Shown here: positions 1-55,903 of the stretch, piece after piece
Numbering within the stretch: the stretch's first letter is position 1
How the letters are laid out: every line of letters begins with the position of its first letter
NCBI GenBank assembly: GCA_964573695.1
Contig: CAZNKB010000004.1
Coordinates: forward strand, 14,214 to 78,213
Source: an uncultured Gammaproteobacteria bacterium
GTDB taxonomy: Bacteria > Patescibacteriota > Microgenomatia > UBA10105 > UBA927
Length of the DNA stretch: 64,000 nucleotides
Direction: 5' to 3'
Made by a program: the position numbers and the translations under genes
Notes under the pieces: model-generated
What the model was told of the DNA's origin: nothing
What the model saw: the letters and a program-made list of their open reading frames with translations, nothing else
Database searches by the model: none

Positions 1-162
1 TTCCTCTTTTCCTCTGGTGACCAAAAAAAACTTGAGGCCGCCCGTGGCACGGTGACACAAGCCATAATTGGCATCGTCGTCATGTCCCTTGCATACCTTA
101 TTATCCTCACCATAGAGACGTTTACCGGTGTGAAAGTAACGGATTTTACGATCACCCAATAG
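1..162 (+). CDS. 3' fragment of a hydrophobic protein (...AIIGIVVMSLAYLIILTIETFTG..., stop TAG 160-162). It may be a VirB2/TrbC-like pilin C-terminus, given the neighbouring T4SS-like genes. It is truncated by the window edge.
   Basis: Frame-1 translation runs from base 1 to a stop at 160-162 and ends in a transmembrane-like helix. It lies directly upstream of a VirB6-like gene. Confidence 0.3.
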   Translation, partial: FLFSSGDQKKLEAARGTVTQAIIGIVVMSLAYLIILTIETFTGVKVTDFTITQ

Positions 163-198
163 ATTGACTTTAGTAATTTTTCTCCAGATAATGATTGT

Positions 199-1794
199 AT
201 GCGTCGGATAATTTTATCTATCATGTCATTCATCCTTATCGGGATGATGCTTTTAGTACTCCCTCCCCAAGCCCAGGCGCAAGCCGCTGATCCGACAACC
301 GGTGCCGAATGCGATGATGCCACCTGGTATCTCGACCTAAACTGTGTCGTCGCGGGACTTATGAAGGCCTCCGAAGGGGCGCTCAACAAGCAGGCGGGCG
401 ACGTCGGCACTGCCACCATGAGCCAAGGGCAGCTTATTATCGGATTTCGCGGACTGTGCGACGCAGCTAACCCGGATTGCCCGATCGGATTAAGTTATCA
501 AAAAAGCGCGATGGCAGGGCTTGCCAAAAGCACGCTCGCGATGTATCAACATCCGCCTGCCCGAAGTAGCGAGTATATCGCGGACGTAGGACGCACGCTC
601 GGATTTATGCCCAAAAAAGTAGAGGCGCAGGGTATCGGGTTTTCCGGACTTCAAAGCATGCTCCCCTTATGGAAGGTCTTCCGCAATATCGCTTACGCGT
701 TACTTGCCGTTATTATCATCGTTGTCGGATTTATGGTGATGTTTCGGAAAAAAATCGACCCGAAAACTGTCGTTACCGTCCAAAATGCCATACCACGAAT
801 CGTTATCGCGTTGGGGCTCGTCACCTTTTCCTACGCGATCGTGGGAGCCATGATCGACCTTATGTATTTGGCTATCGTGTTATCCGCTTCGGCAGTCGAT
901 AGCGCTTCGGGCGGTAATTTAGGAAAACTATTAAGCCTTGCGACCACGCTTAATCTGGACATACTGCCCCCGAGTTTTACGGCTCCTACGACTTCAGCCC
1001 CGGTAGAAAACGCGACAAAACTTCTCCTAAATGGTGGTGTCAGCGGACTCCTTCGATTTTTCTTTGCAAGCGGCTTTCAGGCATACGACGATATCGGAAC
1101 CATGATTACTCAAAACGACCCGCTAAATATCGCCGCCTGGACCGTCGTTCCCGGAGTAATCGGTTATATGTTCGGACTAAGAGGCGCGCTATTGGGTCTT
1201 ACCACAGGACCGGTACTACTCGCCATTATATTTTTGATCATATTACTCTTTGGTGTGATCCGGCTTATTTTCATGCTACTGGACGCCTATATCAATATCA
1301 TCATTTCGCTGCTCACCGCCCCGTTCCAGCTGATGATGGAAGCAATTCCTGGAACCAATGCATTTAGCTCGTGGTTTAGGAATTTATTATCAAAAATTCT
1401 TGTATTTCCGATTACCGTACTCCTGCTGTTAGTCACGGCGGTACTCACCTCCCAGGACGTTTCAATGAGCATATGGGCTCCCCCGCTACTCTCCACGGGC
1501 GAGGGGACATATGGTATGGCTGGGCTCATCGGGCTCGGCATGCTTATGGTTATCCCAACGATTGTCCAAGGATTACAAAAAGGTCTTAAGGCAGAGCCCC
1601 TTGTCCCCGGAGGGGTTGGTCCTATCGTTGGGCCGCTGGGATCCGGTGTAGGTACGCTATTTAACCTTGGATACCAAGCGAGCTTTATAGCAAGCGCTTT
1701 CCGACACAAACCGGAAGCAAGATCCTCTATGCAGATTGCCCGCGAAGGAGCCGAAAAAGGATTAGGGTCAATTACCGGCGGCGGCGGTCACTAA
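199..1794 (+). CDS. Polytopic membrane protein with an N-terminal signal peptide and at least six transmembrane helices. VirB6/TrbL-like type IV secretion channel component (inference).
   Basis: 531 aa. The signal peptide MRRIILSIMSFILIGMMLLVLPPQAQA is followed by many long hydrophobic segments and a Gly-rich C-terminus. The gene sits beside VirB4- and VirD4-like ATPases. Confidence 0.45.
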   Translation: MRRIILSIMSFILIGMMLLVLPPQAQAQAADPTTGAECDDATWYLDLNCVVAGLMKASEGALNKQAGDVGTATMSQGQLIIGFRGLCDAANPDCPIGLSYQKSAMAGLAKSTLAMYQHPPARSSEYIADVGRTLGFMPKKVEAQGIGFSGLQSMLPLWKVFRNIAYALLAVIIIVVGFMVMFRKKIDPKTVVTVQNAIPRIVIALGLVTFSYAIVGAMIDLMYLAIVLSASAVDSASGGNLGKLLSLATTLNLDILPPSFTAPTTSAPVENATKLLLNGGVSGLLRFFFASGFQAYDDIGTMITQNDPLNIAAWTVVPGVIGYMFGLRGALLGLTTGPVLLAIIFLIILLFGVIRLIFMLLDAYINIIISLLTAPFQLMMEAIPGTNAFSSWFRNLLSKILVFPITVLLLLVTAVLTSQDVSMSIWAPPLLSTGEGTYGMAGLIGLGMLMVIPTIVQGLQKGLKAEPLVPGGVGPIVGPLGSGVGTLFNLGYQASFIASAFRHKPEARSSMQIAREGAEKGLGSITGGGGH

Positions 1795-1813
1795 TATTTT
1801 CTTCTTCTCGCTA

Positions 1814-4800
1814 TCAGTGGTGACTTCCCCCGCTTTCCTGTTCTTTGGTAGATTTTTCTATCGCTATGGCTAGCGTTGCTGCCAGCACAACCCACCAATA
1901 TTTCCGATATAACGCGGTCAACCGATACGGCAAGCCGGTCTTAAACTCTCGCCGCAGGTCCAGAATATATTCGGGATGGTTAATAAACAATCCCATGTCT
2001 TGAGCTGACACCAAAATCTCTTCCATTTTCGCTTCATCCCATGCGTTTGCGTGCGCACCGGTATAGCGTGAGGAATAAGATATCGCCTCCCCCACAGAAT
2101 GCGGCCAATGACTAATTTTTTCTTTTACCAGTTCTTTCCAACGGTCTTTTCCAAACACGAGCTGAAGAATTTTATTGTCCTTAAGCGGGCGCAGATCCAC
2201 CTCTGCCAAATACATCAGTCCGCGGGTCAATCCGGGAACCCAGCCAACTGTTTTTAGGCTTCTGTGTCTGTTCATTTCAAAAAAGACGCGCATCATTTCT
2301 TTTACCGTGTTTTCTGCGGCGTCAGGACCGGAATAATCAACGATCGCGGTTCTCACTTCCATCATTTTCTGAAGAGATTTGGTGTAATCATTGGGAGACA
2401 AAACCATCTCGTTATTTGAGAAAAACTCCAACATACCATTTCTCGCGTTCATTTGTGCTCCCACATCCCGGATTCTTCTGTGCATGGCGACGGTTCCCAG
2501 CTGATAAAAATTCGATTCTTTCCAATCAAAATCTGTCATGCTCATGGTAAGGGGTAATTTAAGCGCTGCGATAGCGTCCATTTTATTGTGAAATGTCCCC
2601 CCCGACGCTTCAACCGTACGCCCGCGGTAAATCTCAGCCTGCATATCGACAAGCACCTGTCGAAGATTTTCGCTCCGCGTTGGATCAAGCTTCAATATGT
2701 TTAAATACGGCACGACCAGGGCATCAAAATCCTTCTTTTCTGCCAAATCCACCCGGGCGAACTGCCAGTCTTTTTCGTGAGCCATTTTAAGCTCGGCAAG
2801 CGAGAGAGCTTCTTTAAATTTCTTCCATTCTTCATGAGTAACCTTGTTCTTCGTTAAGATTCGCTCTGTATCTTCTTCGAGTAATTCCAAAAACTTCGAG
2901 GGATTTCGTCGAAGCATGCGGTCCAATATCGGCTTGCGCTCTGCGGCGTTACCTGCGGTGAGCAATTGAATAGAAAGCGCCTGATTATCCAGTAATGCAG
3001 CGTTTTCCGGCAACTTTTTCATGCTCAAGAGCTTGCCCCGAAGTTCATCTGCTACTCCCTTTTCAAGTCTCCACGCGGTGCCGTCATAAAACCCTCCGCT
3101 TGCCATAAATCCTGGCCCCAAAAGTTCACTAAAGGATATTCCTGTCGCGTCTTCCGCAAATTCCCAGGCTTCCATGGAGGCCTGACGTTCTTTATCATGC
3201 TCATGGTGTTTCGCCTCGCGCCATTCCTTAGACTTGGTAATCTTAAACTTCTCACCCAGTTTCTCAACGGCTCCGCCGATTTTTTTGAACCACCCGGGCT
3301 CCTTCGGATTAATACCCTTGGTGTTTAGCAAATTTTTGCGGAATATACTCCGCGCGGTAATACCCATGTCACCACCGATATTAAATCTGCTCGCGAACGT
3401 TTCCGGATTAAATATGCGTTGGATATCTTCAAACGCAGGAGCTCTCATCACGTGCTTACCAGAAGCCGTACCGTACTCCACGGCTGGTGGAATCGACATC
3501 ATGGCTCCTATCATCGCCATGCGACCCGACCCGATCATGGCAGTCCGAGAGGCCCACAACGCCATACGCACTTCGTATTCGGCAGGTTTGTAATTAGGAT
3601 CTTCAGGATGCTGCGCCTGAAGATATTCAACGAGACGCTTACGGACCTCGATATCGACCGGCGAAAGTCCGCGCGTCTCTAACAGCTCCTGTGTAAAATT
3701 TTCGTTAAGCATTTCTTCCCGATGAGAATAGATCTGGTACAATCTGTCGACTTCTGCTAGCTGCTCGTTTTCCTTTTCTGTCAGCGCCGTTCCCTGGCTC
3801 TTTTTCTTGAGCAATTCCTCGCGATTATTCTTAAGCTTGGAAAGCGTGATGTGCAGCTCGGTATAACTTTGAACGTCGTCGTCCCACAACATGACACCTT
3901 CTGCTGCCAAATCATTCTGTTGCTGTATTTCGTGCATCAGGCGCTGATCTTCTATGGAAAGCGGGCTTTGGGTCTTGCCCTTTGCGGGATCAAATCCTTC
4001 TTGGCGCTGCTTCGCCCTGAGTTCTTTTAAGACATCTTCCCTCTTCATGTGCTTGCCGTTCCAGGAAATTTCTTCCTGCATGTACTTTATGGCTTCGCCG
4101 TATTTTGCGCGCTTGGTGGCCATAAGTTCAAATAACACATGTTCATAAAGACTGTATGCTTCGTTCGAATGATCGAAGTTCTTATAAAGGTGGTCCAAAT
4201 CAGCGCCCTGGAGGAGGCTCATAGCCTTGAGCCTATCCTTCACGTCTCCCGGGTTATACATAAGTCCTTTGACCGCATACTCATATTGTCCGCGGCTATC
4301 CCAATGTTTTTGGTACAGCTGAACCGCTAAGTGATACTCCCCGCCATATTTCCACACGAGATAATCCTTAAACTCCTGAAAGCGCTGATCCTGGGTAAGC
4401 GTCGGTCGAGTCTCTTCGCGTCCCATGGAATATATCTGGTCAATAAAGTCAAAATACCACCGCGCCTCCCCTTCGTCTCCTTGAATAAGCATCTCGACGT
4501 CAGCAGGAGGGATGTAACGGAAATCTGGAAAAACCTCGTCCGGCTTGTGAAGATCCGGGTTGGGAGCGTTCTGCATAATTTCTCCCCACGTTACGACCCT
4601 GCCTCCGCGGAGCTTCTCTTGGTGTTTTTGCATCCGCAAGTCAGTAAACCGCTCAAAATATCGCACGCGCTCTACGGCCTTTTGAACTAATTTTTCGTCG
4701 ACGCCCTCCCTACGGCCTTTTTCTACCATGCGCCGAACGGCGTCGTCGGTGAGTCGGTTGTCATATGCCGCTCCGGGATCTACCCGGAAGCGGTACTGAA

Positions 4801-5449
4801 GCTCCTGCAAATCAAAACCAAGCGGCGTGTCCTTTAAATCGGCGTCGACGGACTCATCGAAAAGTTTTTTGACTTCCTGAGACAACTCAGGATCCCTATC
4901 TGCATTCTCTTCACTTTCTCCTTGAGACGAGCCGTCTTCTACTCCTGATCCTCCGGCAATCACCGGCACCGCTTCAATCTGTAAGTCGGCAAGGCTGGGA
5001 TTTTCAGCGATAATTTTACGCAAATATTTCCTCGCTTCTACTGCTGTCGGACTGGTAAGCCCCGATTCCTTTGCCACCGCTACAAGCTGAAGGCCGATTC
5101 CGCGCATATACTCAGGATCTGCTAGCTGCGCTTCATCGGCGGTAAGAAGCGATTCGACGATGCTAAACACCCGCTCGTCTTTAGGAAATTCTCCGTCTCC
5201 CCCCAACATCCTTCGTTTAGCTGTTTCCGAGGCAACCTCGGCGCGTTTGGCAGCAAATGCCGTCAGGCGCTCCTTGCTTACTTCTTTTACGTCCTTCTTC
5301 ACTTCTTGCTCGAGCTTCACTTCCGGAGTTTCTGGAGAATAGGGGGGCTCTGGAGAAATCGGTGTTTCGGGTGACAAAGGTTGTCCCCCGCTTTGAGCGG
5401 CTTTTTTTGCCGCTTCGTTGAGCCTTTTAAATAACTCCTCATTTGCCAT
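1814..5449 (-). CDS. Large (1211 aa) cytoplasmic protein of unknown function, with a Pro/Glu-rich N-terminus and no signal peptide.
   Basis: Long uninterrupted ORF with no transmembrane segment and no recognisable catalytic motif. No relaxase 3-His motif was seen. It is embedded in the T4SS-like cluster. Confidence 0.6.
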   Translation of the reverse strand: MANEELFKRLNEAAKKAAQSGGQPLSPETPISPEPPYSPETPEVKLEQEVKKDVKEVSKERLTAFAAKRAEVASETAKRRMLGGDGEFPKDERVFSIVESLLTADEAQLADPEYMRGIGLQLVAVAKESGLTSPTAVEARKYLRKIIAENPSLADLQIEAVPVIAGGSGVEDGSSQGESEENADRDPELSQEVKKLFDESVDADLKDTPLGFDLQELQYRFRVDPGAAYDNRLTDDAVRRMVEKGRREGVDEKLVQKAVERVRYFERFTDLRMQKHQEKLRGGRVVTWGEIMQNAPNPDLHKPDEVFPDFRYIPPADVEMLIQGDEGEARWYFDFIDQIYSMGREETRPTLTQDQRFQEFKDYLVWKYGGEYHLAVQLYQKHWDSRGQYEYAVKGLMYNPGDVKDRLKAMSLLQGADLDHLYKNFDHSNEAYSLYEHVLFELMATKRAKYGEAIKYMQEEISWNGKHMKREDVLKELRAKQRQEGFDPAKGKTQSPLSIEDQRLMHEIQQQNDLAAEGVMLWDDDVQSYTELHITLSKLKNNREELLKKKSQGTALTEKENEQLAEVDRLYQIYSHREEMLNENFTQELLETRGLSPVDIEVRKRLVEYLQAQHPEDPNYKPAEYEVRMALWASRTAMIGSGRMAMIGAMMSIPPAVEYGTASGKHVMRAPAFEDIQRIFNPETFASRFNIGGDMGITARSIFRKNLLNTKGINPKEPGWFKKIGGAVEKLGEKFKITKSKEWREAKHHEHDKERQASMEAWEFAEDATGISFSELLGPGFMASGGFYDGTAWRLEKGVADELRGKLLSMKKLPENAALLDNQALSIQLLTAGNAAERKPILDRMLRRNPSKFLELLEEDTERILTKNKVTHEEWKKFKEALSLAELKMAHEKDWQFARVDLAEKKDFDALVVPYLNILKLDPTRSENLRQVLVDMQAEIYRGRTVEASGGTFHNKMDAIAALKLPLTMSMTDFDWKESNFYQLGTVAMHRRIRDVGAQMNARNGMLEFFSNNEMVLSPNDYTKSLQKMMEVRTAIVDYSGPDAAENTVKEMMRVFFEMNRHRSLKTVGWVPGLTRGLMYLAEVDLRPLKDNKILQLVFGKDRWKELVKEKISHWPHSVGEAISYSSRYTGAHANAWDEAKMEEILVSAQDMGLFINHPEYILDLRREFKTGLPYRLTALYRKYWWVVLAATLAIAIEKSTKEQESGGSHH

Positions 5450-5536
5450 ATAAAAAAATAAATAACGTGAAGCAACGCGCTATATTGACGCGCTTACTAT
5501 AATTCTAACGTGTCTCAACGAGAAGAACAAGGGAGC

Positions 5537-6091
5537 TTATCGATACAAATTGTTGATTTGTATATACGAGGCGACGGACGGCGGAACAAACTGATCAATG
5601 GGGAGGCCCTTACTCGCGCGTTGACGTATCTTTGTCGAAGATATATTTGTTCCGACCAGCAACTCGTGAGAGACTACCGTCATATTCGGGTGCAATGGCT
5701 CATTGGGGTACCCGTATCTGGGGAATACAACAAAAGGAATTTGCCGAATAAGTGTTTCCCACTCTCCCCACAGGTGAAGCGTCGGAAGCTGATCAGAGCC
5801 GATAATAAACCGGAACTCGTGTTCTCGCGGTAAATATGGCAGCAGATGTATGGTATCTCCGTCAAGCGCATGATCAATCTCAATAGACGAAACCTTTGTA
5901 TGGGCAAGGGTCAGCAGCTTTGTCATTGCCAGACGGTGCGTGACCTGAGCTACCGGCTTAGGAGGAATTTGACCATAATTTGGCAAAAACCACACCTCAT
6001 CGATGTCTGTAAAGTCTAAAATCTGCTGGGCGATCATGAGATGCCCGATATGAGGCGGGTTAAATGCGCCGCCCAATAACCCAATATTCAT
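5537..6091 (-). CDS. nadD: Nicotinate-nucleotide adenylyltransferase (NaMN adenylyltransferase)
   Basis: GGAFNPPHIGH (the HxGH nucleotidyltransferase motif) and a C-terminal ISSTKIR motif. 184 aa. Confidence 0.85.
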   Translation of the reverse strand: MNIGLLGGAFNPPHIGHLMIAQQILDFTDIDEVWFLPNYGQIPPKPVAQVTHRLAMTKLLTLAHTKVSSIEIDHALDGDTIHLLPYLPREHEFRFIIGSDQLPTLHLWGEWETLIRQIPFVVFPRYGYPNEPLHPNMTVVSHELLVGTNISSTKIRQRASKGLPIDQFVPPSVASYIQINNLYR

Positions 6092-6098
6092 GTCAGCG

Positions 6099-8282
6099 TT
6101 ATTGTACCTTTTTTGTATATCGCTCGCGAGAAACTCGTATAACCGTCTCTCGATGCTCGTTTTTGCTACGTGGAAGCGGCAACGTCATAGCAGAAAATGG
6201 AGTCGACGTTTGATTATCTATGGAAAGCTTCAGCACCACCTGGAAGTTCCCGAGCGCGACGAGTTCGGATTCTTCATATTTCTCGCCGAATTCACGGGTC
6301 AGCAACCTGGCGTCCGCCGCCCCGACCGCAAAGGAGATAATTGACCCTGCATTTCCAAAAATCGCCTTTTGCACATCTTCGTCGATTTGTCCTATATATT
6401 GATTCGCAAGCGTCAGGTTGAGCCTATATTTACGGGCCTCTGATAGAATCTTGATAAACGACTGAGTCGCAAAATTTTGGAACTCGTCGACATAGAGATA
6501 AAAATCGCGCCTGTTTTCTTCTGCTTTATATACCCTGTTCATGGCGGCAAGCTGCATTTTTGTGATAATCATCGCCCCAAGCAAAGCACTGCTATCCTCT
6601 CCTAATTTTCCTTGAGACAAGTTAACAATCACTATTTTCCCTTCGTTCATCATGTGCTCCAAATCCACCGTTGAGACAGGATGACCTACGATGTTGCGGA
6701 TCGTGCGTGACGAAAGAAACTGCCCGACTTTATTGAGGATCGGTGATATGGACTCGCTCCGCATCTGTGGGCTTAGCCGATTAAATTCGTTGAGCCAAAA
6801 ATTTTTGAGCACGCGGTCGTCAAGTTTTTCAACCACCTTCTCTCTATATTTATCATTGGTCAATAATTCCGGGATATCCAAAAAAGTTGATTGTGGTACG
6901 TGTGTGAGCGTGAGAATCGTATTTCTGAGGATATATTCCAATCTCGGCCCCCAACTCATGTGATACAGCTTATAAAAAATAGACACGATGCCCGAAGCCA
7001 CAAGCTCCCGGTATGCAGGATTTTTTACTTCCAGGGGGTTTAAATGAAACGGATGATCCATGTCGGCCGGATCCAAATACGCAACGTCGTTTGTTCTATG
7101 AGAAGGAACGTAATCAAGAAGGATGTCGCTTAGATCTCCGTGGGGGTCTATAACCGCCATACCTTCCCCATTTTTCATGTCGTTTATCGCCATGTTGGCG
7201 ATGAGCGTTGATTTTCCCGTTCCGGTTTTTCCGATAATATAGACGTGTTTCCGTCGGTCTTCCTTTTTCACTCCGAACGTGGTTTGTGTATTTTTGTATT
7301 CTGTTTTTGCAAAAAAGTTTATACGGCGCTTCTCCTCCTGATCCTCCGTCACTATGGGCAGGTTTGCCGGCGCCTCGCCCAAAAGATGCGCCCCCCAATG
7401 GATATTTTTTATCATGGAGAGCCCGATCCCAGGCGGATGCCACAACGATGCCAGCTCTGAGGCGCCCAACACTTGAAATCTCGGCCGTCCGTAATCTCCT
7501 CGGGAGACAAACGACTGTTCAAACTTTTTCTTCTGCCAAAACTGGGGAACTGATAGAGTCAAATTGTTTCCTTCTCCCAGCGTATACACCCCGAACGCTC
7601 CCCCTGTCGTTTGAAGGATGTGCTGAGCACGCTCGACACTCGGAGCAACAGCCAATAACCGAAGTGACGCAAAAAATCCAACCTGGTTCATCTTTGTCTC
7701 CATGATTCGTGCGTGCGGATGCGGCTTTGTCCGCCCGACAGTCGAGTTAGGATCAGGCACTCCGCGAGCGATAATAGACCCTATCGACTGCTGCCAGGAG
7801 CTTCCCGCAGGAGAAAGGCGTATTTGCAGAGCTATCGCTTCCTGAGGCGCAAGTTTAGCAAATTGTCCTGCTACCCCGGAAAGAATATCGAGATCTTTTA
7901 TGTCTTTGTATGTTTTTAGGGGTAAGTAAAAACTATTTCCATATACTAGTTGGCCAGAGGCATGAGGAAGCGAAAGAAAATGCTCGGCATAATCATCGGT
8001 TTTTGCAATTAAAACCCGCGGGTACTGCGCGGTCAACTGACTTTCCAAATACCCCCGAAGGGACTCGGTCGTTGCGACAAAAAAATGAATTCTGCTGTTT
8101 ACCGAAACCATCTCTAAACTGAAATACGGGGCCATATGTCCCGGGTGAAGCAGTCGGGAAATAATTCCCTGATGTCCTCCCCCGCTCCCTAACGCGGCAA
8201 AAACCTGCTCCATGGCAAGCGGTGTTTCTTCACTTTCCCTAGCGTTTTGAATTTCTAATACGGTAAGACCTGAACTGGTCAT
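6099..8282 (-). CDS. P-loop ATPase of the FtsK/HerA/VirD4 (TraG/TraD/TcpA-like) coupling-protein type. There is no N-terminal transmembrane anchor.
   Basis: Walker A motif IIGKTGTGKSTLIANM, followed by MAVIDPHGDLSDI (the DPHGD box typical of conjugative coupling ATPases and HerA) and a Walker B motif FYLYVDEFQNF. 727 aa. Confidence 0.55.
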   Translation of the reverse strand: MTSSGLTVLEIQNARESEETPLAMEQVFAALGSGGGHQGIISRLLHPGHMAPYFSLEMVSVNSRIHFFVATTESLRGYLESQLTAQYPRVLIAKTDDYAEHFLSLPHASGQLVYGNSFYLPLKTYKDIKDLDILSGVAGQFAKLAPQEAIALQIRLSPAGSSWQQSIGSIIARGVPDPNSTVGRTKPHPHARIMETKMNQVGFFASLRLLAVAPSVERAQHILQTTGGAFGVYTLGEGNNLTLSVPQFWQKKKFEQSFVSRGDYGRPRFQVLGASELASLWHPPGIGLSMIKNIHWGAHLLGEAPANLPIVTEDQEEKRRINFFAKTEYKNTQTTFGVKKEDRRKHVYIIGKTGTGKSTLIANMAINDMKNGEGMAVIDPHGDLSDILLDYVPSHRTNDVAYLDPADMDHPFHLNPLEVKNPAYRELVASGIVSIFYKLYHMSWGPRLEYILRNTILTLTHVPQSTFLDIPELLTNDKYREKVVEKLDDRVLKNFWLNEFNRLSPQMRSESISPILNKVGQFLSSRTIRNIVGHPVSTVDLEHMMNEGKIVIVNLSQGKLGEDSSALLGAMIITKMQLAAMNRVYKAEENRRDFYLYVDEFQNFATQSFIKILSEARKYRLNLTLANQYIGQIDEDVQKAIFGNAGSIISFAVGAADARLLTREFGEKYEESELVALGNFQVVLKLSIDNQTSTPFSAMTLPLPRSKNEHRETVIRVSRERYTKKVQ

Positions 8283-8404
8283 GAGGCTATCTTATCATAG
8301 ATATTTTTTTTCTTTCGTGAAAACTACAAAAGTGGAGTTTTCACGGTCCTGATGCGCTTTGTGCTATTGAACCCTATTATTTTTCCCTCTACAATGATTT
8401 ATGT

Positions 8405-9700
8405 ATGGAGCAACATCCGGTTCCTCAAAATGTCACCACGTTTCAGTTTCGGCTGATCGGTGACATGACAATTAAACAATTCGGATATTTATGCGCAGGG
8501 GCAATTTTGGCGTTTATCGCATACAAACTTCCCCTTCCTTTTATCATCACCTGGCCGCTTACCGGTGCTTTCGCGTTTTTGGGGGTCGGGTTTGCGTTTA
8601 TCCCAATAGAAGAGCGACCCATGGACGTGTGGGTGTTTTCTTTTTTTAAAAGCATCTATAGTCCGACACAATATATCTGGTCTCACGAAAGTACTACGCC
8701 AACTCCAAAAACACAGGCCGCCCCGAAAGCTGTACCAAGCCCGACAGTGGCTACCACCGCTGTGCCGGTTGCCACTCCAACACAACCGACCCCTCCCTCC
8801 GCCATACCGCCTCAAGCTCATCCACAAACGTCAAAAAGCGTTTTGTCGGGATTATTCCAAACCCCTACTCCAGCGACCCCACAACCCGCTCAACAGGACA
8901 GAGTGCGTGTTGCAAAACCGCATGTTTCTATTCTGGATGAAATCGCGCTATTTTTTCGCCCAAAACACACACCCTCCTCTGTTGCTGTCCAGTCCGATAC
9001 GCAACAGATTCCTCCCGTGACCGGAAAACACGCGGACATCGACCCAAAACCACAATCACCTCCCACATCAACGCTCGAAGCATCTCAGATGCAACAAAAA
9101 ATGAAACAACTGGAGGAAACCCTGGCGACGCTTGAAACCCGCCTGGCTACCAAATCCATGACCGAAGACCGCGTTCTGGAACTACAAAAACAACTCACCG
9201 ACGTCATGGTCGCAAAAAACAAAACTGAGGAAGAGCTTGTCACGCTTAAGCGAAAAATGACTCCGGACGCTCCTCCTGTCGCTTCACAAAACGCTCCGAC
9301 GCTCGGTCGCGGCACGGTCAACGTCATCACTACGCAGGAGGCGGCCGTAAAAGTTGGGCTTCCGAGATTAACCAATGTTCCCAACGTGATCACGGGGCTC
9401 GTGAAAGACGACGCCGGCAATCTCCTCCCCGGAATTCTCGTCACGGTAACAAATCATGAAGGTGTTCCTGTCCGCGCGCTAAAAACCAACAAGTTAGGAC
9501 AGTTTGCCGCGTCTACCCAACTTATGAGCGGCGTGTATTTTGTGGAAATCGAAGATCCAAGAGGAAGATTTTCGTTCACCAGAGTGCAAATCACCTTAAA
9601 CGGCTCTGTCGTGCCTGTGCTGGAGATTATCGCACGGAGCGAAAAAGCGTTGACTCGTGAAAAACTCGCACAGGAAATTTTCGGCAAAACATCAATATAA
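8405..9700 (+). CDS. Membrane protein with two N-terminal transmembrane helices (VirB3/PrgI-like?), a Pro/Thr/Ala-rich linker, a coiled-coil segment and a C-terminal prealbumin/CarboxypepD_reg-like beta domain.
   Basis: The N-terminal transmembrane hairpin is LCAGAILAFIAYKLPLPFIITWPLTGAFAFLGVGFAFIPI. The low-complexity PT-rich linker spans roughly residues 100-230. The coiled coil includes KMKQLEETLATLETRLATK. The C-terminus reads GLVKDDAGNLLPGILVTVTNHEGVPV...GVYFVEIEDPRGRF. Confidence 0.45.
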   Translation: MEQHPVPQNVTTFQFRLIGDMTIKQFGYLCAGAILAFIAYKLPLPFIITWPLTGAFAFLGVGFAFIPIEERPMDVWVFSFFKSIYSPTQYIWSHESTTPTPKTQAAPKAVPSPTVATTAVPVATPTQPTPPSAIPPQAHPQTSKSVLSGLFQTPTPATPQPAQQDRVRVAKPHVSILDEIALFFRPKHTPSSVAVQSDTQQIPPVTGKHADIDPKPQSPPTSTLEASQMQQKMKQLEETLATLETRLATKSMTEDRVLELQKQLTDVMVAKNKTEEELVTLKRKMTPDAPPVASQNAPTLGRGTVNVITTQEAAVKVGLPRLTNVPNVITGLVKDDAGNLLPGILVTVTNHEGVPVRALKTNKLGQFAASTQLMSGVYFVEIEDPRGRFSFTRVQITLNGSVVPVLEIIARSEKALTREKLAQEIFGKTSI

Positions 9701-9706
9701 CCATAT

Positions 9707-10360
9707 ATGGCAGACTCAATCGTACCAATACGCGCGTCAACTCAGATTTTTACCGAAATCGTTGACGTCGATCGTGATCTCGTCCTTTTTGCCGACGGCT
9801 CCGTGTCGCTTGTTATCGCCACAACCGCGGTGAACTTCGGTTTGTTATCCGAAAAAGAACAGGATGCCATAATTTACGCCTACGCCGGACTTCTGAACTC
9901 GCTCTCGTTCCCTATACAGATACTTATACAAACAAAACATAAGGATATTTCCGCATACCTAAAACTATTAGAGGATCAGGAAAAACGGCAGAAAAATCCA
10001 AAACTCACCAAGAGTATTCATGGATACCGCCTGTTCGTGGCTTCCATGGTCAAAGAAAAGGATGTCTTGGACAAAAAATTTTATATCGTGCTGCCTTTTT
10101 CAGCCATAGAACTCGGGGTTTCCTCAACCTTGCTGTTCGGGCCCAAAAAATCTGGGCTGCCATACGAAAAATCGTATATACTCGACAGGGCGCTCACCGT
10201 GTTGTTACCCAAAAAAGATCATCTTATTCGTCTGTTAGCCCGTGTCGGGCTTCACGCGACACAACTTAATTCAAGCGCCTTGGTAAAACTCTTTTTTAGC
10301 ATGTATAACCCTGGTAATCCGCCACCCGACGTCACAATGCTAAATCTTGGAAAGGAATAG
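9707..10360 (+). CDS. Hypothetical cytoplasmic protein (217 aa) immediately upstream of VirB4, with a near-overlap suggesting translational coupling.
   Basis: Clean ORF whose stop lies 3 nt before the VirB4 start. No motifs were recognised. Confidence 0.45.
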   Translation: MADSIVPIRASTQIFTEIVDVDRDLVLFADGSVSLVIATTAVNFGLLSEKEQDAIIYAYAGLLNSLSFPIQILIQTKHKDISAYLKLLEDQEKRQKNPKLTKSIHGYRLFVASMVKEKDVLDKKFYIVLPFSAIELGVSSTLLFGPKKSGLPYEKSYILDRALTVLLPKKDHLIRLLARVGLHATQLNSSALVKLFFSMYNPGNPPPDVTMLNLGKE

Positions 10361-10362
10361 TC

Positions 10363-12294
10363 ATGGCCGAACCTTCTAAACTTACCACATTGTTAAACTC
10401 AATTATGGGCTCGTCCGCCCAGTCAAAAATACACCCGTCAACGCCGTCACAGCAACCTCTTTCTGTAACAGATATCATAGCTCCTCCCGCTATAGAGGTA
10501 GATTTTGACCTTCTCAAAGTCGGTGACTGGTACTACCGGTCTCTCTTCGTGGCCGGATACCCTCGTTTCGTTGCGGCCAACTGGCTGGAACCGCTTGTTT
10601 CGTTTAATCATACCCTTGATATCTCGATGTATGTCTATCCCACCCGAAGCGAAGAGATACTCGAAAACCTGAAGCGCAAAGTAGGAGAAATGGAGGCCAC
10701 CATACAGTCAGACCTAAAGCGCGGCAGGGTTATAGAGCCCTCTGTTCAGGTAGCACTTGAAGACGCCCTCGCTCTCCAGCAGGAGCTTGCAAAAGGCTCA
10801 GAACGGTTTTTCCAGTTCGGGCTCTACGTCACGATTCCGGCAAAAACCAGGGAGGACCTCGATAAAACCACCAAACAAGTGGAGGCAACGCTCGGCTCGC
10901 TTCTTATCGTTACCAAAAAATCGATTCTCCAAATGGAAGAGGGCATGAAAACGACGCTCCCCATGGGCAAGGACAGGGTCCTTGTTACGCGCAACATGGA
11001 TACTACTTCGCTTGCAACAACATTTCCTTTTACCACAAGCGAGCTTACGGCAAACGAAGGGATTCTTTACGGCCTAAACGAGCACAATGATTCGCTTATT
11101 ATTTTCGATCGGTTCACGCTCGAAAATGCCAATTCTGTTGTATTTGGAAAATCAGGAGGGGGGAAGAGTTACATGGTGAAGCTTGAAATCATGCGAAGTC
11201 TCATGTTTGACACTGAGGTAATCGTTATTGATCCGGAAAATGAATATGAAAACCTCACACACACGCTTGGCGGAGAATATATCCGGTTTCGTTTCGGATC
11301 CCAAACCAAACTCAACCCGTTTGATTTGGCGCTTTTAGGGTCCGATCTTGATGACCAAAGCGAACTAAGTCAAAAAGTACTATCTTTGCACGGATTCTTC
11401 CGTGTGGTCATGGGAAAACTTACCCCCACGGAAGACGCGCTCTTAGACCGCGCCCTCATCCTAACCTACAAACAAAAAGGGATTACTCCTGACCCGTCGA
11501 CCCACAAAAAAGAGCCGCCACTCATGGAAGATCTCTACAAAACGCTCGTCGGCATGGAGGAGGTGCTGGCGAAAGGCCTGGCCGACCGTATAGAAAAATT
11601 TGTAAAAGGCAGCTTGGTGGGGATATTTGATCAGCAAACAAATGTGTCGATTAGAAACCAGTTGACCGTGTTCTCGATACGCGACCTTGAAGATGAACTC
11701 CGACCGATCGCTATGTATCTTATCCTCGATTTTATATGGAACAAAATCCGTCATGACAAAAAACGCCGGTTACTCATTGTTGATGAGGCCTGGTATATGA
11801 TGAAGTATCCGGACTCTGCCCAATTTCTCTATGGAATTGCCAAGCGGGCAAGAAAATATTACCTTGGTCTCACCACGATCACCCAAGATGTGGAGGATTT
11901 TATGGCAACGGAAATGGGCAAGGCTATCATCCAAAACAGCAGTATGCAGATACTACTCAAACAGTCTTCTGCGGCTATAGACACGATCGCACAGGTTTTT
12001 TATTTGTCTGAGGGAGAAAAACACCTGCTTCTTGCGGCTGATGTAGGACAGGGGTTATTTTTCGCGGGCCCCGCCCACGCAGCCATGAGGGTAATCGCAA
12101 GTCCGGAAGAGCATGAGGTGGCGACAACCCGACCCCAGGAAACGCTAAAAAATCAAGAGGCGCTCGCCCAACAGTCTCTGGACAAGCCCTTATCAACAAA
12201 CGTCCCTATTATTAAGGAAACGGCCCCCGTGCTTCCCAAATCAAATCGCCCTATATTCACCGTAGAAACGGTACAAAACAGTAAAACCGGGTAA
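10363..12294 (+). CDS. VirB4/TrbE/CagE-family type IV secretion ATPase
   Basis: Walker A motif FGKSGGGKSYMVK, followed by VIVIDPENEYENL and a Walker B motif LLIVDEAWYMM. 643 aa with a large N-terminal domain. Confidence 0.75.
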   Translation: MAEPSKLTTLLNSIMGSSAQSKIHPSTPSQQPLSVTDIIAPPAIEVDFDLLKVGDWYYRSLFVAGYPRFVAANWLEPLVSFNHTLDISMYVYPTRSEEILENLKRKVGEMEATIQSDLKRGRVIEPSVQVALEDALALQQELAKGSERFFQFGLYVTIPAKTREDLDKTTKQVEATLGSLLIVTKKSILQMEEGMKTTLPMGKDRVLVTRNMDTTSLATTFPFTTSELTANEGILYGLNEHNDSLIIFDRFTLENANSVVFGKSGGGKSYMVKLEIMRSLMFDTEVIVIDPENEYENLTHTLGGEYIRFRFGSQTKLNPFDLALLGSDLDDQSELSQKVLSLHGFFRVVMGKLTPTEDALLDRALILTYKQKGITPDPSTHKKEPPLMEDLYKTLVGMEEVLAKGLADRIEKFVKGSLVGIFDQQTNVSIRNQLTVFSIRDLEDELRPIAMYLILDFIWNKIRHDKKRRLLIVDEAWYMMKYPDSAQFLYGIAKRARKYYLGLTTITQDVEDFMATEMGKAIIQNSSMQILLKQSSAAIDTIAQVFYLSEGEKHLLLAADVGQGLFFAGPAHAAMRVIASPEEHEVATTRPQETLKNQEALAQQSLDKPLSTNVPIIKETAPVLPKSNRPIFTVETVQNSKTG

Positions 12295-12299
12295 AACGT

Positions 12300-14483
12300 A
12301 TGGCAAGTGACGCTCAGCCGCTTAAAGAATTTACAGAGAACCTGCTGTCTGACGTTTCTTTGGGAAACATTTCTGTTTATGAGGCCATTGCAGCAGCAAG
12401 TCAGTATGCATACCTTCGGGATCTGATTATTTCAGAAAAAGAAACGCTTGGACAGGCGGAGATCATGGGGGAAAAAGATCTCATCCGGGCATTCGAATCA
12501 ATCGTTTCCCGCGCATCCAAAAAACTTACGGAACTTCCGAATTTTCAAAACCAGTCTCCTGATCAACAACTGCGAGAAGATGACGTTCGGGCGCTTGCGG
12601 AAGTTCGTAAATATGCAGCAACCAGGATAAAGGAAGCCGCGCAAAACAACGTCAGAAACCAAAAGCCAGAGCGGCGCGCTTTTATTCACGATCTTGTTAA
12701 CAAATTCAGTTCAACCGTGCCGACACTTACCGACGAAAAAATTGGGGTTGCGGTTGACCACGCGCTTATCGCCGCAGCAGGAGAAGCCACACAGAAACAG
12801 ACCAGGGAACGTTTTGCCGAACTTCTTATGGCGTCAAGCGAGATATCAATGCCCGAGCTTACACCGCAACAGGCAAACAGTCTAAAAAAAGAAATTGAAA
12901 TGGCAACAAATACGAACGACTCGTATATTTCTGAAGTGACGAAACAGAATAAACGCAACAACCAGCTTGTTACCATGCTCTATGAAAAAACCGATATGCA
13001 GCGTCCGGACGTATTTATCGATATCGTATTAAATGCAAAAGATACCGAGCCCGTATCTTCCTTGTTCTTGCGCGCAGAAAAACTTGCGGAGGTTGCTCAG
13101 TCTCTGGAAAACCATCCCAAGCGGGACGGTGGATCGCTTCAGTTTTTTTCCGCTGGTGGAGCTCGTGGAGTGGCAAAGGGGCTACAACAAGGAGCCGACG
13201 GCGTCCTTTCTCTCGTCGGAGAACCCGTGAGAGAGATGATTATTCACGAAAAAGTCAATGGGACACTCCGGGCAATGCTCTCAAATACACAGCGGTTTGC
13301 CGACCGATTAGGTGAAAATTTCGTGCACAGCGCATTGTTTGCTCACGTTGCCCAGGACTTAACTCGCCAACTCTCGGAAAGACCAACAGGGGGACAGGTA
13401 AGAACTGTGTTTGATGACGTATTTTCCTCCGTATTCCGCGGCCCTTTTAATCCTGCCCTTGCGCGTGGGGCACAAGATCGGTTATTGGACTATTTCGAGC
13501 TTGCTCGGGCAAACGCACAATCTCCAAAAGGCAGGGCGTTTCTTCGTTCAGAAATGCGCCTTTGGGACGCGTTTCGCGTATTTGACCAGCAAAGAGCCGT
13601 CGAGACAACAAGGCGCTCCACCCGCGGCGCTTTCTGGCTCCCCTTTTTTGGATTTCGATCACTTAGCAACTTATTCGGGAACACCGTGGGAACATTGGTC
13701 GACAATACCACTTCGTTTCTATTAACAAACCCTTTTGTTCCACGACAATTATCCCGATCGAGAAGGGCGGCAGCAATTCCTACTCCCATAGGGGAGGATA
13801 TGCCCCTTTTGACTGCGCTTATTGTGGTGGGGGCAGTTGTACTACTTTTTGTCTTCCCGTCTCCACTAAATCTCTCTCAGCTTTCTCATAGTGCAAAAGT
13901 GAGCGCGATATTTGCGTCGCTCAGGCGCTACAAAGAAACTGTGCAAAACATAACAAGCGGCAACATCCAGGCAACAACGTTCGTGTGCACATGGAGCGGA
14001 TCATCTCCTGTTTCCCCTATTAGCACGTGTCCTGTCCGTGCGCCGATTACCCAGGGGCCATTTAGTCCGAGCGGGTCACACAAAACATTAAACGCATATG
14101 ATTTTGGCGCAAGCCAGGGAACCCCCGTCGTAGCCGCCCATGATGCATATGTCGCTTCGTATGTTAACTCGTATGCCCCATACCAGTATAAATACGGAAG
14201 TTATGGCAACAACGTCGTCCTGGTGGCCACTGACCCCTCAAGCAATCAACAATATTGCACGAATTACGCGCATTTATTGGATGTTTCTCCTCAGGTAGCA
14301 GCAAGTTCAGGAAAACCCACGTTGATACCCGCGGGTACGGTTATAGGGTACGTCGACACAACAGGATATACTTATGGGTGTATAGGTAATAAATGTGGCG
14401 AGGGGTATGGCACTCATCTCCACTGGGGGTACAAAGGGCCAAACCAATCAACGCCGTTCCCGCTTCCACCCGGGTGCCCATAA
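12300..14483 (+). CDS. Large protein (727 aa) with a helical N-terminal half, a central transmembrane segment and a C-terminal M23 (LytM-type) metallopeptidase domain. Probable T4SS-associated peptidoglycan hydrolase.
   Basis: The C-terminus reads IPAGTVIGYVDTTGYTYGCIGNKCGEGYGTHLHWGY, which matches the M23 HxH signature. The transmembrane helix is LLTALIVVGAVVLLFVF. The gene follows VirB4 directly. Confidence 0.6.
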   Translation: MASDAQPLKEFTENLLSDVSLGNISVYEAIAAASQYAYLRDLIISEKETLGQAEIMGEKDLIRAFESIVSRASKKLTELPNFQNQSPDQQLREDDVRALAEVRKYAATRIKEAAQNNVRNQKPERRAFIHDLVNKFSSTVPTLTDEKIGVAVDHALIAAAGEATQKQTRERFAELLMASSEISMPELTPQQANSLKKEIEMATNTNDSYISEVTKQNKRNNQLVTMLYEKTDMQRPDVFIDIVLNAKDTEPVSSLFLRAEKLAEVAQSLENHPKRDGGSLQFFSAGGARGVAKGLQQGADGVLSLVGEPVREMIIHEKVNGTLRAMLSNTQRFADRLGENFVHSALFAHVAQDLTRQLSERPTGGQVRTVFDDVFSSVFRGPFNPALARGAQDRLLDYFELARANAQSPKGRAFLRSEMRLWDAFRVFDQQRAVETTRRSTRGAFWLPFFGFRSLSNLFGNTVGTLVDNTTSFLLTNPFVPRQLSRSRRAAAIPTPIGEDMPLLTALIVVGAVVLLFVFPSPLNLSQLSHSAKVSAIFASLRRYKETVQNITSGNIQATTFVCTWSGSSPVSPISTCPVRAPITQGPFSPSGSHKTLNAYDFGASQGTPVVAAHDAYVASYVNSYAPYQYKYGSYGNNVVLVATDPSSNQQYCTNYAHLLDVSPQVAASSGKPTLIPAGTVIGYVDTTGYTYGCIGNKCGEGYGTHLHWGYKGPNQSTPFPLPPGCP

Positions 14484-14485
14484 TT

Positions 14486-15490
14486 ATGAATAGAACACAA
14501 ATCATAATCGTCTTTATTTTTGTTTTTGCATTGCTCACGTCCCTTTGGGTCGTATTCTCTAAAAAACCAAGACAGCAACAGACGCTCCCTCCTCAGCTGT
14601 TTGTAACCCCTGTTCCCATTCGTCCTTCGGCCATGCCTCAGTCAATATCCAATAGCCCGGTCACTTATTTGGGCGAACTGCTCTTCACTGCTCCAAAAAC
14701 TGTCCCGTATTATTCGATAAACAGACGAAGAGACTTTGAAACGGAGCGGGCAAGGCTTTTTGCGTTCTATAACATCGCTGCCCCACCAACAACAATCATC
14801 GGTGCTAGGGGGCGGTACGCAAGCTTCGTTCAGGGTGGAAAATCCGGCACGATATCAGAAAACCCTCTAACGTTTGTTGTTCGCGCTTCGGCAACCTCCA
14901 ACAAGACCATAACAAGCGACGCAAATGCTTACCTCTCGGGGGTTACAGGCGCCCTAACCGAGCTATCCTTGCTCCCCTCGTTGTTCGTCCCAACGATTAC
15001 CTCCCAACGATATTTTAAGTTCGATGAATCACACCCTACGGATTTAAAATCTCCAGAGGGAGCCTTGGTTACTCGGTTGGATCTCACTGCTTCGATTGAG
15101 GGGGCGCCTCTCTTTATTGGTGATGCCGATACCCCTGTCTTTTCCGCTAGCTTTAATGGGGATAATACGTTAGTTGAGCTTCGCAGCTCGATCCTACCTG
15201 ATATTACCCGCGAAAAAAACAGTGTCGAAATAATCTCGTACGACGAGGCGCTTCGTAGGCTCAAATCTAACACAGGAATTTTCTCTAGCGTCTCGCTGAC
15301 AAGCGCCGGTGACAAGGAATTCATGACGGGAGCTCTCCCGGACAACATAAAAATCGAGAGAGTAACGCTCGGATACTATTATTCAAATATCCAGGACTAT
15401 CTTATTCCGGTTTTTGTATTTTCCGGATCCGCTCAAGAACCAGGAGGGCCCGCCGTTCTTCGCACGACAACTGTCGTCTCTGCTTTATGA
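14486..15490 (+). CDS. Hypothetical membrane-anchored extracellular protein (N-terminal signal anchor).
   Basis: The internal Met MNRTQIIIVFIFVFALLTSLWVVF starts at 14486, immediately after the M23 protein stop. The ORF-track start at 14393 would overlap the upstream gene. Confidence 0.45.
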   Translation: MNRTQIIIVFIFVFALLTSLWVVFSKKPRQQQTLPPQLFVTPVPIRPSAMPQSISNSPVTYLGELLFTAPKTVPYYSINRRRDFETERARLFAFYNIAAPPTTIIGARGRYASFVQGGKSGTISENPLTFVVRASATSNKTITSDANAYLSGVTGALTELSLLPSLFVPTITSQRYFKFDESHPTDLKSPEGALVTRLDLTASIEGAPLFIGDADTPVFSASFNGDNTLVELRSSILPDITREKNSVEIISYDEALRRLKSNTGIFSSVSLTSAGDKEFMTGALPDNIKIERVTLGYYYSNIQDYLIPVFVFSGSAQEPGGPAVLRTTTVVSAL

Positions 15491-16591: not shown

Positions 16592-16771
16592 ATAACTTAA
16601 TAAGCAGTAGTAATAAGAATTAGGCGTGGAAAAGTGTATGTTTTTTTGATTTACGTGTCAACGGCAAGACAAAACCATGAATTTGTTTGTGGATAAGTAA
16701 TGCCAAAAGCGGCAAAAACGGTGGAGAAATAAGTGGATAAAAGAGCTCGGTTTGTGGATAAGTGGAAAACA
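16592..16771. promoter_or_regulatory. dnaA-dnaN intergenic region carrying three consensus DnaA boxes (TTATCCACA on the minus strand). Candidate oriC or DnaA-regulatory module.
   Basis: TGTGGATAA at 16688-16696. AGTGGATAA at 16732-16740. TGTGGATAA at 16753-16761. Confidence 0.6.
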
Positions 16772-53640: not shown

Positions 53641-53694
53641 GTGCTTGTAATTTCCCTTTCACTCCCCTATCCTAACATTAGGGCTATTTATTCT

Positions 53695-54339: not shown

Positions 54340-54341
54340 CT

Positions 54342-55859: not shown

Positions 55860-55903
55860 TCCTTTATACGAGTTAAATCCCTAATTTTGGTACAATAAGG
55901 GTC

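Follow-up and report, generated by a model that had tools for sequence, protein, structure and literature searches.

A gene cluster at positions 1-15490 of the analysed DNA, a 64-kb stretch of contig CAZNKB010000004.1 (the whole stretch is called the window below), is assigned here, with a probability of roughly 85%, to the core chromosomal type IV secretion system (T4SS) of Patescibacteria, a system of the MPF_FATA lineage that does not serve conjugation. The cluster contains a VirB4 ATPase gene preceded by TrsD-like and PrgI/VirB3-like genes, a gene for an M23 cell-wall hydrolase, the end of a VirB2-like pilin gene and a candidate VirB6-like gene, and it runs up to dnaN, dnaA and the replication origin (Table 1). 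Open reading frames (ORFs) were listed mechanically and their products were then scanned against Pfam and NCBIfam. Both steps recovered the T4SS-like gene set that an initial annotation had placed in this interval, together with a TrsD-like gene that it had not listed. The core finding is already known, the arrangement having been published between 2023 and 2025 (PMC12102498, PMC10633639, PMC12857230), and the window is a well-resolved Gottesmanbacteria example which does not change the published picture.

Table 1. Features of the cluster and of the adjoining origin region, with the ratio of nonsynonymous to synonymous substitution rates (dN/dS) against sister strain L083
Feature	Position in window	Strand	Basis of assignment	dN/dS
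VirB2-like T4SS pilin gene, 3' end (53 codons)	1-162	+	PF18895	
VirB6-like polytopic membrane protein, 531 aa (candidate)	199-1794	+	fold, topology, gene position	0.009
Orphan protein 'BIG', 1211 aa, no family	1814-5449	-	lineage-restricted homologues	0.034
nadD (nicotinate-nucleotide adenylyltransferase), housekeeping, not a T4SS part	5537-6091	-	TIGR00482, E 1.3e-37, above cutoff	0.078
VirD4/T4CP-like P-loop ATPase, 727 aa	6099-8282	-	TrwB_AAD_bind, TraG-D_C, DUF87	0.018
PrgI/VirB3-like fusion, 431 aa	8405-9700	+	N-terminal PrgI, C-terminal CarboxypepD_reg-like domain	0.105 (highest)
TrsD-like protein, 217 aa	9707-10360	+	NF045975 N-terminal part, NF041427	0.012
VirB4 ATPase, 643 aa	10363-12294	+	NF045971, E 3e-119	0.004
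Membrane-anchored M23 metallopeptidase, 727 aa	12300-14483	+	Peptidase_M23 at residues 598-712	
N-terminally anchored extracytoplasmic protein, 334 aa, YycI/YycH-like fold	14486-15490	+	AlphaFold2 model, Foldseek	
dnaN (DNA polymerase III beta clamp)	15485-16591	-	three DNA_pol3_beta domains, E 1e-22 to 1e-25	
dnaN-dnaA spacer with DnaA-box cluster (one oriC half)	16592-16771	.	perfect boxes at 16688 and 16753, one-mismatch box at 16732	
dnaA	16772-18139	-	Bac_DnaA, E 1.5e-60; Bac_DnaA_C, E 1.7e-21	
dnaA upstream region with DnaA boxes (other oriC half)	18140-18247	.	perfect box at 18160, one-mismatch box at 18170	

Motor and membrane proteins

A VirB4-family ATPase is the one universal signature of T4SSs. 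The 643-amino-acid (aa) product, named as a VirB4 ATPase from the outset, scored 399 bits against NF045971, the NCBIfam model of the CD1110 family (cutoff 325), was also matched by Pfam P-loop_TraG (E 2.3e-25) and DUF87, and found 4ag5 (E 4e-47) and TrwK (E 5.5e-7) among PDB sequences. It shared 27% identity with PrgJ of plasmid pCF10 over 539 aligned positions (PrgJ residues 242-772, E 8e-45), and NCBIfam CedB was matched with an E-value of 1.3e-13. By these sequence matches its assignment as the signature T4SS motor, of the Gram-positive MPF_FATA type, is secure. The exact protein is also present on two short Logan contigs.

On the same kind of evidence VirB4 is split into two genes, the TrsD-like protein representing the N-terminal domain of a full-length VirB4, because the 643-aa protein starts aligning only at residue 242 of PrgJ and the product of the gene directly upstream matches models of the VirB4 N-terminus. 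The matches of this upstream product to NF045975 VirB4_plasma (model positions 130-233, E 1.8e-5) and to NF041427 TrsD (E 1e-4) were both below cutoff, PF26593 (TraC-like) was matched faintly, and pairwise BLASTP with PrgJ was not significant. The family was nevertheless detected in all 84 sources searched. Two related loci (L013 and L018) encode a single long VirB4, of 735 and 820 aa respectively, with no separate TrsD in the ORF call; according to these calls the two genes may be fused there, which would fit a TrsD that is a detached VirB4 N-terminal domain.

The VirB3-like fusion of the initial annotation was recognised by an N-terminal match to PF12666 PrgI, slightly below cutoff (E 1.5e-5, 25.9 bits, cutoff 27). 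This part forms a tight hydrophobic hairpin of two helices, with transmembrane segments at residues 26-64, and is followed by a linker rich in Pro, Thr and Gln, a coiled-coil-like stretch and a CarboxypepD_reg-like beta-sandwich, the last of which was matched below cutoff in two scans (E 6.8e-6 and 2.1e-6). Pairwise BLASTP with PrgI of pCF10 was not significant. Orthologues, whose length varies from about 130 to 1015 aa, were detected in 81 loci, and almost always trsD is the next gene downstream.

Genes of the plus-strand operon are spaced 2-6 nucleotides (nt) apart. The initial description of co-oriented, mostly plus-strand genes holds for most of the cluster but not for the T4CP-like gene, nadD and the 1211-aa orphan, which lie on the minus strand, and its statement that several genes overlap was not upheld, since the sole true overlap is one of 6 nt with the convergent dnaN. 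An apparent overlap of 91 nt (14393-14483) results from a start at 14393 for the 334-aa gene, which is a longest-ORF artefact because the aligned homologues all begin at the ATG at 14486.

Pilins and the VirB6 candidate

Taken alone, the fragment at the left edge of the window, tentatively read as a pilin in the initial annotation, gave a weak match to PF18895 (E 0.0094). Its nature became clear from sister strain L083, which is 91.2% identical in nucleotide sequence over window positions 1-11790 and extends 9.8 kb further left. The L083 orthologue, 98% identical in amino acids, is the sixth and last gene of an array situated to the left of the window. This array (L083 positions 7708-9940) consists of six tandem genes for proteins of 103-122 aa, for all of which PF18895 was the best family (E 1.7e-10 to 2.8e-4); the six paralogues share the two-helix hairpin of VirB2 and are 21-45% identical to one another (mean 29%).

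Next to the pilin array on its upstream side, in divergent orientation, L083 carries at 6189-7639 genes for a sigma factor of the extracytoplasmic function (ECF) type (179 aa), for a protein of 78 aa containing a hydrophobic stretch and for a membrane protein of the Yip1 family; beyond these a mevalonate-pathway operon follows. The 78-aa protein is possibly an anti-sigma factor, and such a pair could regulate the pilin and VirB6-like genes.

The 531-aa protein encoded after the pilin fragment has a signal-like N-terminus and about 5-6 hydrophobic helices. Its initial designation as a VirB6/TrbL-like channel found support in the predicted fold and none in family or profile searches. No Pfam or NCBIfam match was obtained, its profile matched no PDB sequence, and precomputed Pfam data showed no domain in any of the 120 homologues listed (of 500 found). 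Foldseek searches with the AlphaFold2 model (pLDDT 67.6) returned TrwI/VirB6 chains of R388 at ranks 1-5, 7-9 and 11, with DotA at rank 6; the best match was 8rt9_F (E 6.7e-3, TM-scores 0.27/0.43). The R388 chains matched had 188-272 residues, the top one 272, and those longer than 226 aa, including the top match, must be TrwI because VirB5 (TrwJ) is 226 aa long. Comparisons by hhalign with PrgH of pCF10 and TrwI of R388 were not significant (probability <1%). Given the low TM-scores, the protein is retained as a VirB6 candidate at the level of the modelled fold, and not as a demonstrated member of the family.

Cell-wall hydrolase and YycI-like protein

The cell-wall hydrolase announced for the cluster was confirmed by a Peptidase_M23 match of 33.8 bits (cutoff 28.7). 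It forms the C-terminal part of a protein with about 500 N-terminal residues without a family and one transmembrane segment (501-519). Each of the residues H594, D601, H658, H706 and H708 is retained by 27-32 of 34-35 relatives, and the gene occupies the position of prgK in the gene order of pCF10. Domain content and position both indicate a functional analogue of VirB1/PrgK, i.e. a predicted dedicated cell-wall hydrolase.

For the last protein of the operon, a VirB8/TcpC/PrgL-like nature was expected from its size, anchor and position. This candidate was rejected in view of a YycI/YycH fold and a non-significant hhalign comparison with PrgL. With the AlphaFold2 model (pLDDT 72.5, pTM 0.66) the top Foldseek match was YycI (2o3o, E 1.2e-5, TM-scores 0.36/0.47), and YycH was found with an E-value of 5.3e-4; VirB8, TcpC, TraM and PrgL were absent from the top 50 matches. 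The Pfam YycI model was matched faintly (E 0.069). The WalK regulators YycI and YycH of Bacillus subtilis likewise combine an N-terminal membrane anchor with an extracytoplasmic alpha/beta domain. In contrast to them, the 334-aa gene has no walRK operon context, and the similarity stays low both in structure (TM-scores of only 0.36/0.47) and in sequence.

Chromosomal position, lineage and selection

As initially proposed, the cluster abuts the chromosomal origin. Perfect DnaA boxes (TTATCCACA) occur three times in the whole 64-kb window, at 16688, 16753 and 18160, and the plus-strand GC skew changes from negative to positive at about 16 kb, with its cumulative minimum at 15-17 kb. The origin, oriC, lies on both sides of dnaA and 1.1 kb from the last T4SS gene, and it is placed there because the skew minimum, the perfect boxes and the one-mismatch boxes agree. 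Chromosomal clusters of this kind beside dnaA had been mentioned for ultrasmall episymbiotic bacteria, in agreement with two published accounts (PMC12102498, PMC10633639). The location probably reflects long-standing linkage, and possibly a benefit from gene dosage.

Relatives were collected by a VirB4 scan of one genome per species with tblastn confirmation, which yielded 236 relatives, 80 of them retained; 83 related loci were compared by tblastn and clustering. All retained VirB4 relatives come from environmental contigs of metagenome-assembled genomes, and every informative record title among them names a Patescibacteria lineage. The closest are 74-90% identical in amino acids, with informative titles reading Candidatus Gottesmanbacteria or 'Patescibacteria group', and the more distant ones belong to Woese-, Curtiss-, Beckwith-, Levy-, Davies- and Shapirobacteria, all of them Microgenomatia. 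The host is, by these affinities, a Candidatus Gottesmanbacteria bacterium (Microgenomatia, Patescibacteria or candidate phyla radiation), and the title 'uncultured Gammaproteobacteria' carried by many related records is evidently a submission default.

Comparison across relatives detected prgI-trsD-virB4 in essentially every one of the 83 loci, and in all 57 loci where dnaN and dnaA were both detected, these two minus-strand genes lie downstream of this trio and convergent with it. The dN/dS ratios (Table 1), calculated at dS values of 0.35-0.64, indicate genes that are maintained, functional and under strong purifying selection. The gene order shared across Microgenomatia, together with dN/dS values of 0.004-0.105, argues for a vertically inherited, functional core system and against an integrative and conjugative element (ICE).

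The pilin and VirB6-like genes and the operon from prgI to the gene at 14486 point towards oriC and are head-on to the leftward replication fork, whereas dnaN, dnaA and the genes of the T4CP-nadD-orphan string are co-directional with it. Since virB4 is convergent with dnaN-dnaA in all loci where these were detected, the position of the origin found here implies a head-on orientation to replication in these loci as well. Relative to locus L003, identity was 65% for the PrgI fusion, 66% for the M23 protein and 53% for the YycI-like protein, against 86% for VirB4 and 93% for the TrsD-like protein. The fastest-diverging genes are therefore those whose products are putatively exposed (the PrgI extension, the M23 protein and the YycI-like protein). 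If the replication-transcription-conflict hypothesis is true, the head-on orientation would speed the evolution of such components.

The coupling-like ATPase and the minus-strand string

A VirD4/FtsK/HerA-like coupling ATPase had been named in the initial annotation, and family scans agreed with a relationship to type IV coupling proteins (T4CPs). TrwB_AAD_bind (32.1 bits, cutoff 20.5) and TraG-D_C (25.4 bits, cutoff 22) both passed their Pfam cutoffs, DUF87 ('HerA central domain') was matched with an E-value of 1.2e-10, and intact Walker A (GKTGTGKS) and Walker B (YVDEF) motifs are readable. NCBIfam models matched were TraD (1.7e-11), CD1115 (1.2e-10), CedD (1.1e-9) and HerA (0.0059), and the PDB relatives were TrwB (1.3e-5), DotL (1.2e-3) and HerA (0.61); no FtsK_SpoIIIE match appeared in the family scans. 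The initial annotation had left the choice between a T4CP and a protein of the FtsK/SpoIIIE or HerA families, and among these the T4CP families, with TrwB and DotL, scored best. The first 330-335 residues or so matched no family, no transmembrane segment was predicted, and pairwise BLASTP with PcfC of pCF10 was not significant. Some Gram-positive T4CPs, such as TraJ of pIP501, also have no membrane domain.

The best profile match of the ATPase overall was PADLOC mad8 (E 3e-17). Membership in a defence system was rejected, no other defence family having been found among the six cluster proteins tested, and the match is read as a putative shared, generic ATPase core. The gene is transcribed divergently from the prgI-virB4 operon, and its adjacency to nadD, directly upstream of the prgI-virB4 genes, is common to Gottesmanbacteria-level loci.

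Another reading of this string is that of an unrelated module, carrying an ATPase of the HerA/FtsK superfamily, which happens to lie between two T4SS blocks and stays outside the secretion system. The ranking of mad8 and then DUF87 as best profiles, the missing membrane anchor, the housekeeping nadD in the same string and an adjacency seen only in Gottesmanbacteria-level loci all speak for it. So does the account of PMC12102498 that T4CP homologues number about two per Patescibacteria genome, usually lie far from virB4 and are dispensable in Southlakia epibionticum. However, two T4CP-specific domains pass their Pfam cutoffs, the best solved relatives are TrwB and DotL with HerA not significant, no further gene of the MADS type or other defence gene was found among the six proteins tested, and a large minus-strand gene follows the VirB6-like gene in most loci where the latter was detected, among them Curtissbacteria without an adjacent T4CP. 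By this last observation the orphan is linked to VirB6 and not to the ATPase. We consider an unrelated module rather unlikely.

The 1211-aa orphan is the last gene of the string and is convergent with the VirB6-like gene. It is predicted to be soluble; near its C-terminus a weak hydrophobic segment precedes a Gly/Ser/His tail. No family was found in Pfam, NCBIfam or PADLOC, no PDB sequence was matched, and 34 diverse relatives had no Pfam family in common. Word-indexed searches gave 41 homologues and a search of 1.84 billion clusters gave 108 representatives, all of about 1000-1600 aa, with no relative detected beyond the lineage. In most other loci with a detected VirB6-like gene, a fast-diverging minus-strand gene for about 940-1470 aa follows in convergent orientation; a local hidden Markov model (HMM) of the orphan reached these positional analogues only at the edge of noise (E 2.4e-4 and 0.024). 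Most Gottesmanbacteria analogues also have a C-terminal hydrophobic segment and a tail of Gly, Ser and His. The orphan ends in ...ESGGSHH and the VirB6-like protein in ...ITGGGGH, and the analogues of loci L011, L023, L029, L035 and L036 end, after the hydrophobic segment, for example in GGGGGHS, GGGGGGAHH or HGHGH. Such tails may be a shared C-terminal signal or a metal-binding tail. That the orphan would be an unrecognised structural subunit, adaptor or principal substrate with the ATPase as its partner, and that the head-on orientation would at the same time speed evolution, is a joint proposal that we regard as speculative and doubtful. The available parts of the published descriptions make no mention of the large orphan gene or of the head-on orientation.

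Proposed mechanism and direction of transport

By analogy with T4SS structures and with transposon sequencing (Tn-seq) in S. epibionticum, the VirB4 and TrsD-like proteins would form hexamers docking on the VirB3-like hairpin and the VirB6-like protein, and together these would make up a translocon in the cytoplasmic membrane. The M23 enzyme would open the peptidoglycan locally, and the divergent VirB2-like pilins would build an extracellular filament towards the host cell. Such a machine may carry macromolecules such as proteins between the epibiont and its host, and not conjugative DNA. The role in host interaction is suggested by Tn-seq in another class, Saccharimonadia.

Several observations weigh against the assignment to a Patescibacteria T4SS or narrow its reach. 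The VirB6 candidate stands at fold level only (TM-scores 0.27/0.43, model pLDDT 67.6, hhalign not significant), the PrgI, TrsD and CarboxypepD_reg matches are all below their curated cutoffs, and no VirB8-like component (NTF2 fold) was found, the PrgL position being held by a YycI-like fold. The ATPase has no usual N-terminal membrane anchor, mad8 outscores every T4CP model, and the T4CP homologue of S. epibionticum is, by the survey's account, not essential (PMC12102498); the T4CP-like ATPase may consequently not be part of the machine. The left flank is seen only in the sister strain, the relaxase search having covered the window and the L083 flank. Absence of a recognisable VirB8 agrees with the Patescibacteria literature, where VirB8 is described as generally undetectable.

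Within the assignment to a Patescibacteria T4SS, the direction of transport admits a variant in which an uptake system derived from a T4SS, comparable to archaeal Ced or ComB of Helicobacter, imports host nucleic acids or other macromolecules and would feed an organism without nucleotide biosynthesis. Weak but real similarities link VirB4 to CedB (1.3e-13) and the T4CP-like ATPase to CedD (1.1e-9), and no relaxase was found. A review speculates on uptake via the pilus (PMC12857230), and a preprint reports a Patescibacteria parasite that feeds on host RNA and has tubular structures which may be T4SS pili (10.64898/2026.06.21.733656). The Ced similarities are, however, far weaker than the match to a conjugative VirB4 (3e-119) and concern shared ATPase cores only, and of the NCBIfam Ced models only these two were matched by cluster proteins. 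Moreover, loss of comEC in S. epibionticum ends competence but not viability, so that DNA uptake through ComEC does not explain the essentiality of the system, according to the same review (PMC12857230). Import is held to be unlikely. Protein export has been proposed for the T4SS of Saccharibacteria by Wang et al. 2023 (PMC10633639).

Absence of mobility functions

The initial annotation had found no relaxase, integrase or oriT-like repeat and had concluded that the system is chromosomal and no recent ICE; both statements are supported. Scans of 51 ORFs from all over the window detected no relaxase, integrase, transposase or excisionase family. Flanking direct repeats and oriT-like inverted repeats did not exceed chance level, only short ones being present, and the GC content of 0.46-0.50 continues from the cluster into the flanks without a break. 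The upstream search for mobility genes that had been advised was possible in L083, where precomputed Pfam hits over 10 kb included no relaxase, integrase, transposase or excisionase; this left flank contains the ECF sigma factor, the small membrane protein, the Yip1 protein and the mevalonate-pathway operon.

An integrated conjugative element, or a remnant of one, that conjugates DNA from beside oriC is therefore very improbable and largely refuted: the order prgI-virB4-hydrolase-small anchored protein does mirror prgI-prgJ-prgK-prgL of pCF10, the VirB4 is of the conjugative CD1110 type and an adjacent T4CP-like ATPase is reported to be uncommon for Patescibacteria (148 of 5,713 T4CP homologues lie near virB4; PMC12102498), but mobility genes, flanking direct repeats and a compositional break were all missing from the DNA searched, dnaN-dnaA synteny is kept across several candidate phyla of Microgenomatia (a class-level radiation), and under strong purifying selection the divergence of the cluster tracks that of host genes.

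Other features of the window

A perfect inverted repeat of 16 nt, CTCTGCTTTATGATGT, at 15478-15493 and 16769-16784 brackets dnaN exactly and includes the final codons of both dnaA and the 334-aa gene, whose products both end in SAL. The chance expectation for such a repeat is about 0.05 per 20 kb. Its interpretation as a signature of inversion or as an att site was rejected, the repeat being absent from 56 related loci, and it is probably due to chance or strain-specific. Rfam and tRNA scans of the window gave no matches.

The usual neighbours of dnaA, namely rpmH (58780-58917), rnpA (58925-59317), yidD (59290-59559), yidC (59566-60369) and a jag/KhpB-like gene (60378-60827), sit 40.6 kb to the right of dnaA in the window. 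Elsewhere in Microgenomatia, many loci have gene clusters of corresponding size (about 110, 73, 269 and 162 aa) directly after dnaA. The interval in between (18248-58710) is mostly an island for surface-glycan biosynthesis. Besides numerous glycosyltransferases it encodes two Wzy_C proteins (a third is found slightly further right, at 60857), two ABC-2 exporters, a WecG/TagA-GDSL fusion, a carbamoyltransferase, decarboxylases dependent on pyridoxal phosphate and a glycerophosphotransferase. This interval appears to be an insertion common to the closest relatives. Between a sugar-transferase gene and a Mur-ligase-like gene, the block at 51457-57313 contains four plus-strand genes (727, 232, 505 and 469 aa) without an assignable family, the sole matches being a weak one to DUF7305 (6.2e-5) and a marginal one to DUF6395 (0.0073).

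Comparison with known systems

The systems closest to this cluster are covered by a survey of 3,035 Patescibacteria genomes (Quinonero-Coronel et al. 2025, PMC12102498), which describes a monophyletic VirB4 clade inside MPF_FATA, TrsD, PrgI, VirB2 arrays and rare relaxases, and explicitly places virB4 near dnaA/dnaN in Microgenomatia and Paceibacteria; by a study in which the Saccharibacteria counterpart, SEML1_0006-0019, was essential for epibiotic growth (Wang et al. 2023, PMC10633639); and by a 2025 FEMS review summarising both (PMC12857230). No type IV system before that of Patescibacteria had been shown to be essential for its owner's growth, and the Patescibacteria T4SS is one of the main leads on how ultrasmall epibionts exploit their hosts. 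New details contributed by the window are a fold-level VirB6 candidate in Microgenomatia, a homologue of coupling ATPases that is physically linked to the system with an adjacency conserved in Gottesmanbacteria, a conserved giant orphan and a YycI-like protein as candidates for missing components, and a conserved head-on orientation of the T4SS operon to replication.

The cluster shares with the Patescibacteria clade an MPF_FATA VirB4, separate TrsD-like and PrgI/VirB3-like genes immediately upstream of it, a hydrolase of the peptidase type directly downstream, the absence of a relaxase and of a recognisable VirB8, and the location beside dnaN/dnaA. The VirB2 array is likewise common to both: L083 and S. 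epibionticum each have six paralogues, and the mean identity of 29% in L083 compares with about 25% in the survey. Differences concern the T4CP-like ATPase, which is adjacent and divergent here, while the survey counts 148/5,713 T4CP homologues near virB4 (PMC12102498) and no T4CP is recognised in the cluster of S. epibionticum. They also concern VirB6, 'scarce' in Microgenomatia by HMM in the same survey but represented here by a fold-level candidate after the pilin array, the YycI-like fold after the hydrolase, and the embedded 1211-aa orphan and nadD.

The Prg/Pcf system of pCF10 from Enterococcus faecalis, the MPF_FATA prototype, has the same order of VirB6-like, PrgI, PrgJ, PrgK and PrgL positions, a homologous VirB4 (PrgJ) and, like the cluster, no outer-membrane core components. 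Unlike the cluster, it has the relaxase PcfG, relaxosome accessories and the surface adhesins PrgA/B/C but lacks pilins; VirB4 is encoded there as a single polypeptide, and the T4CP, PcfC, carries a membrane anchor. PrgH, PrgL, PrgI and PcfC showed no significant pairwise or profile similarity to the cluster proteins, and PrgK is annotated as lysozyme-type in the pCF10 record, whereas the hydrolase here is an M23 peptidase.

In comparison with the MPF_T systems, R388 Trw and the VirB type of Agrobacterium, the cluster differs in lacking VirB5, VirB7, VirB9, VirB10, VirB11 and a relaxase, in its monoderm envelope and in its split VirB4. It has in common with them VirB2-type pilins and, as a candidate feature seen in the matches to TrwI, a VirB6-like fold, and homology to R388 extends to VirB4 (TrwK, 5.5e-7) and to the T4CP-like ATPase (TrwB, 1.3e-5).

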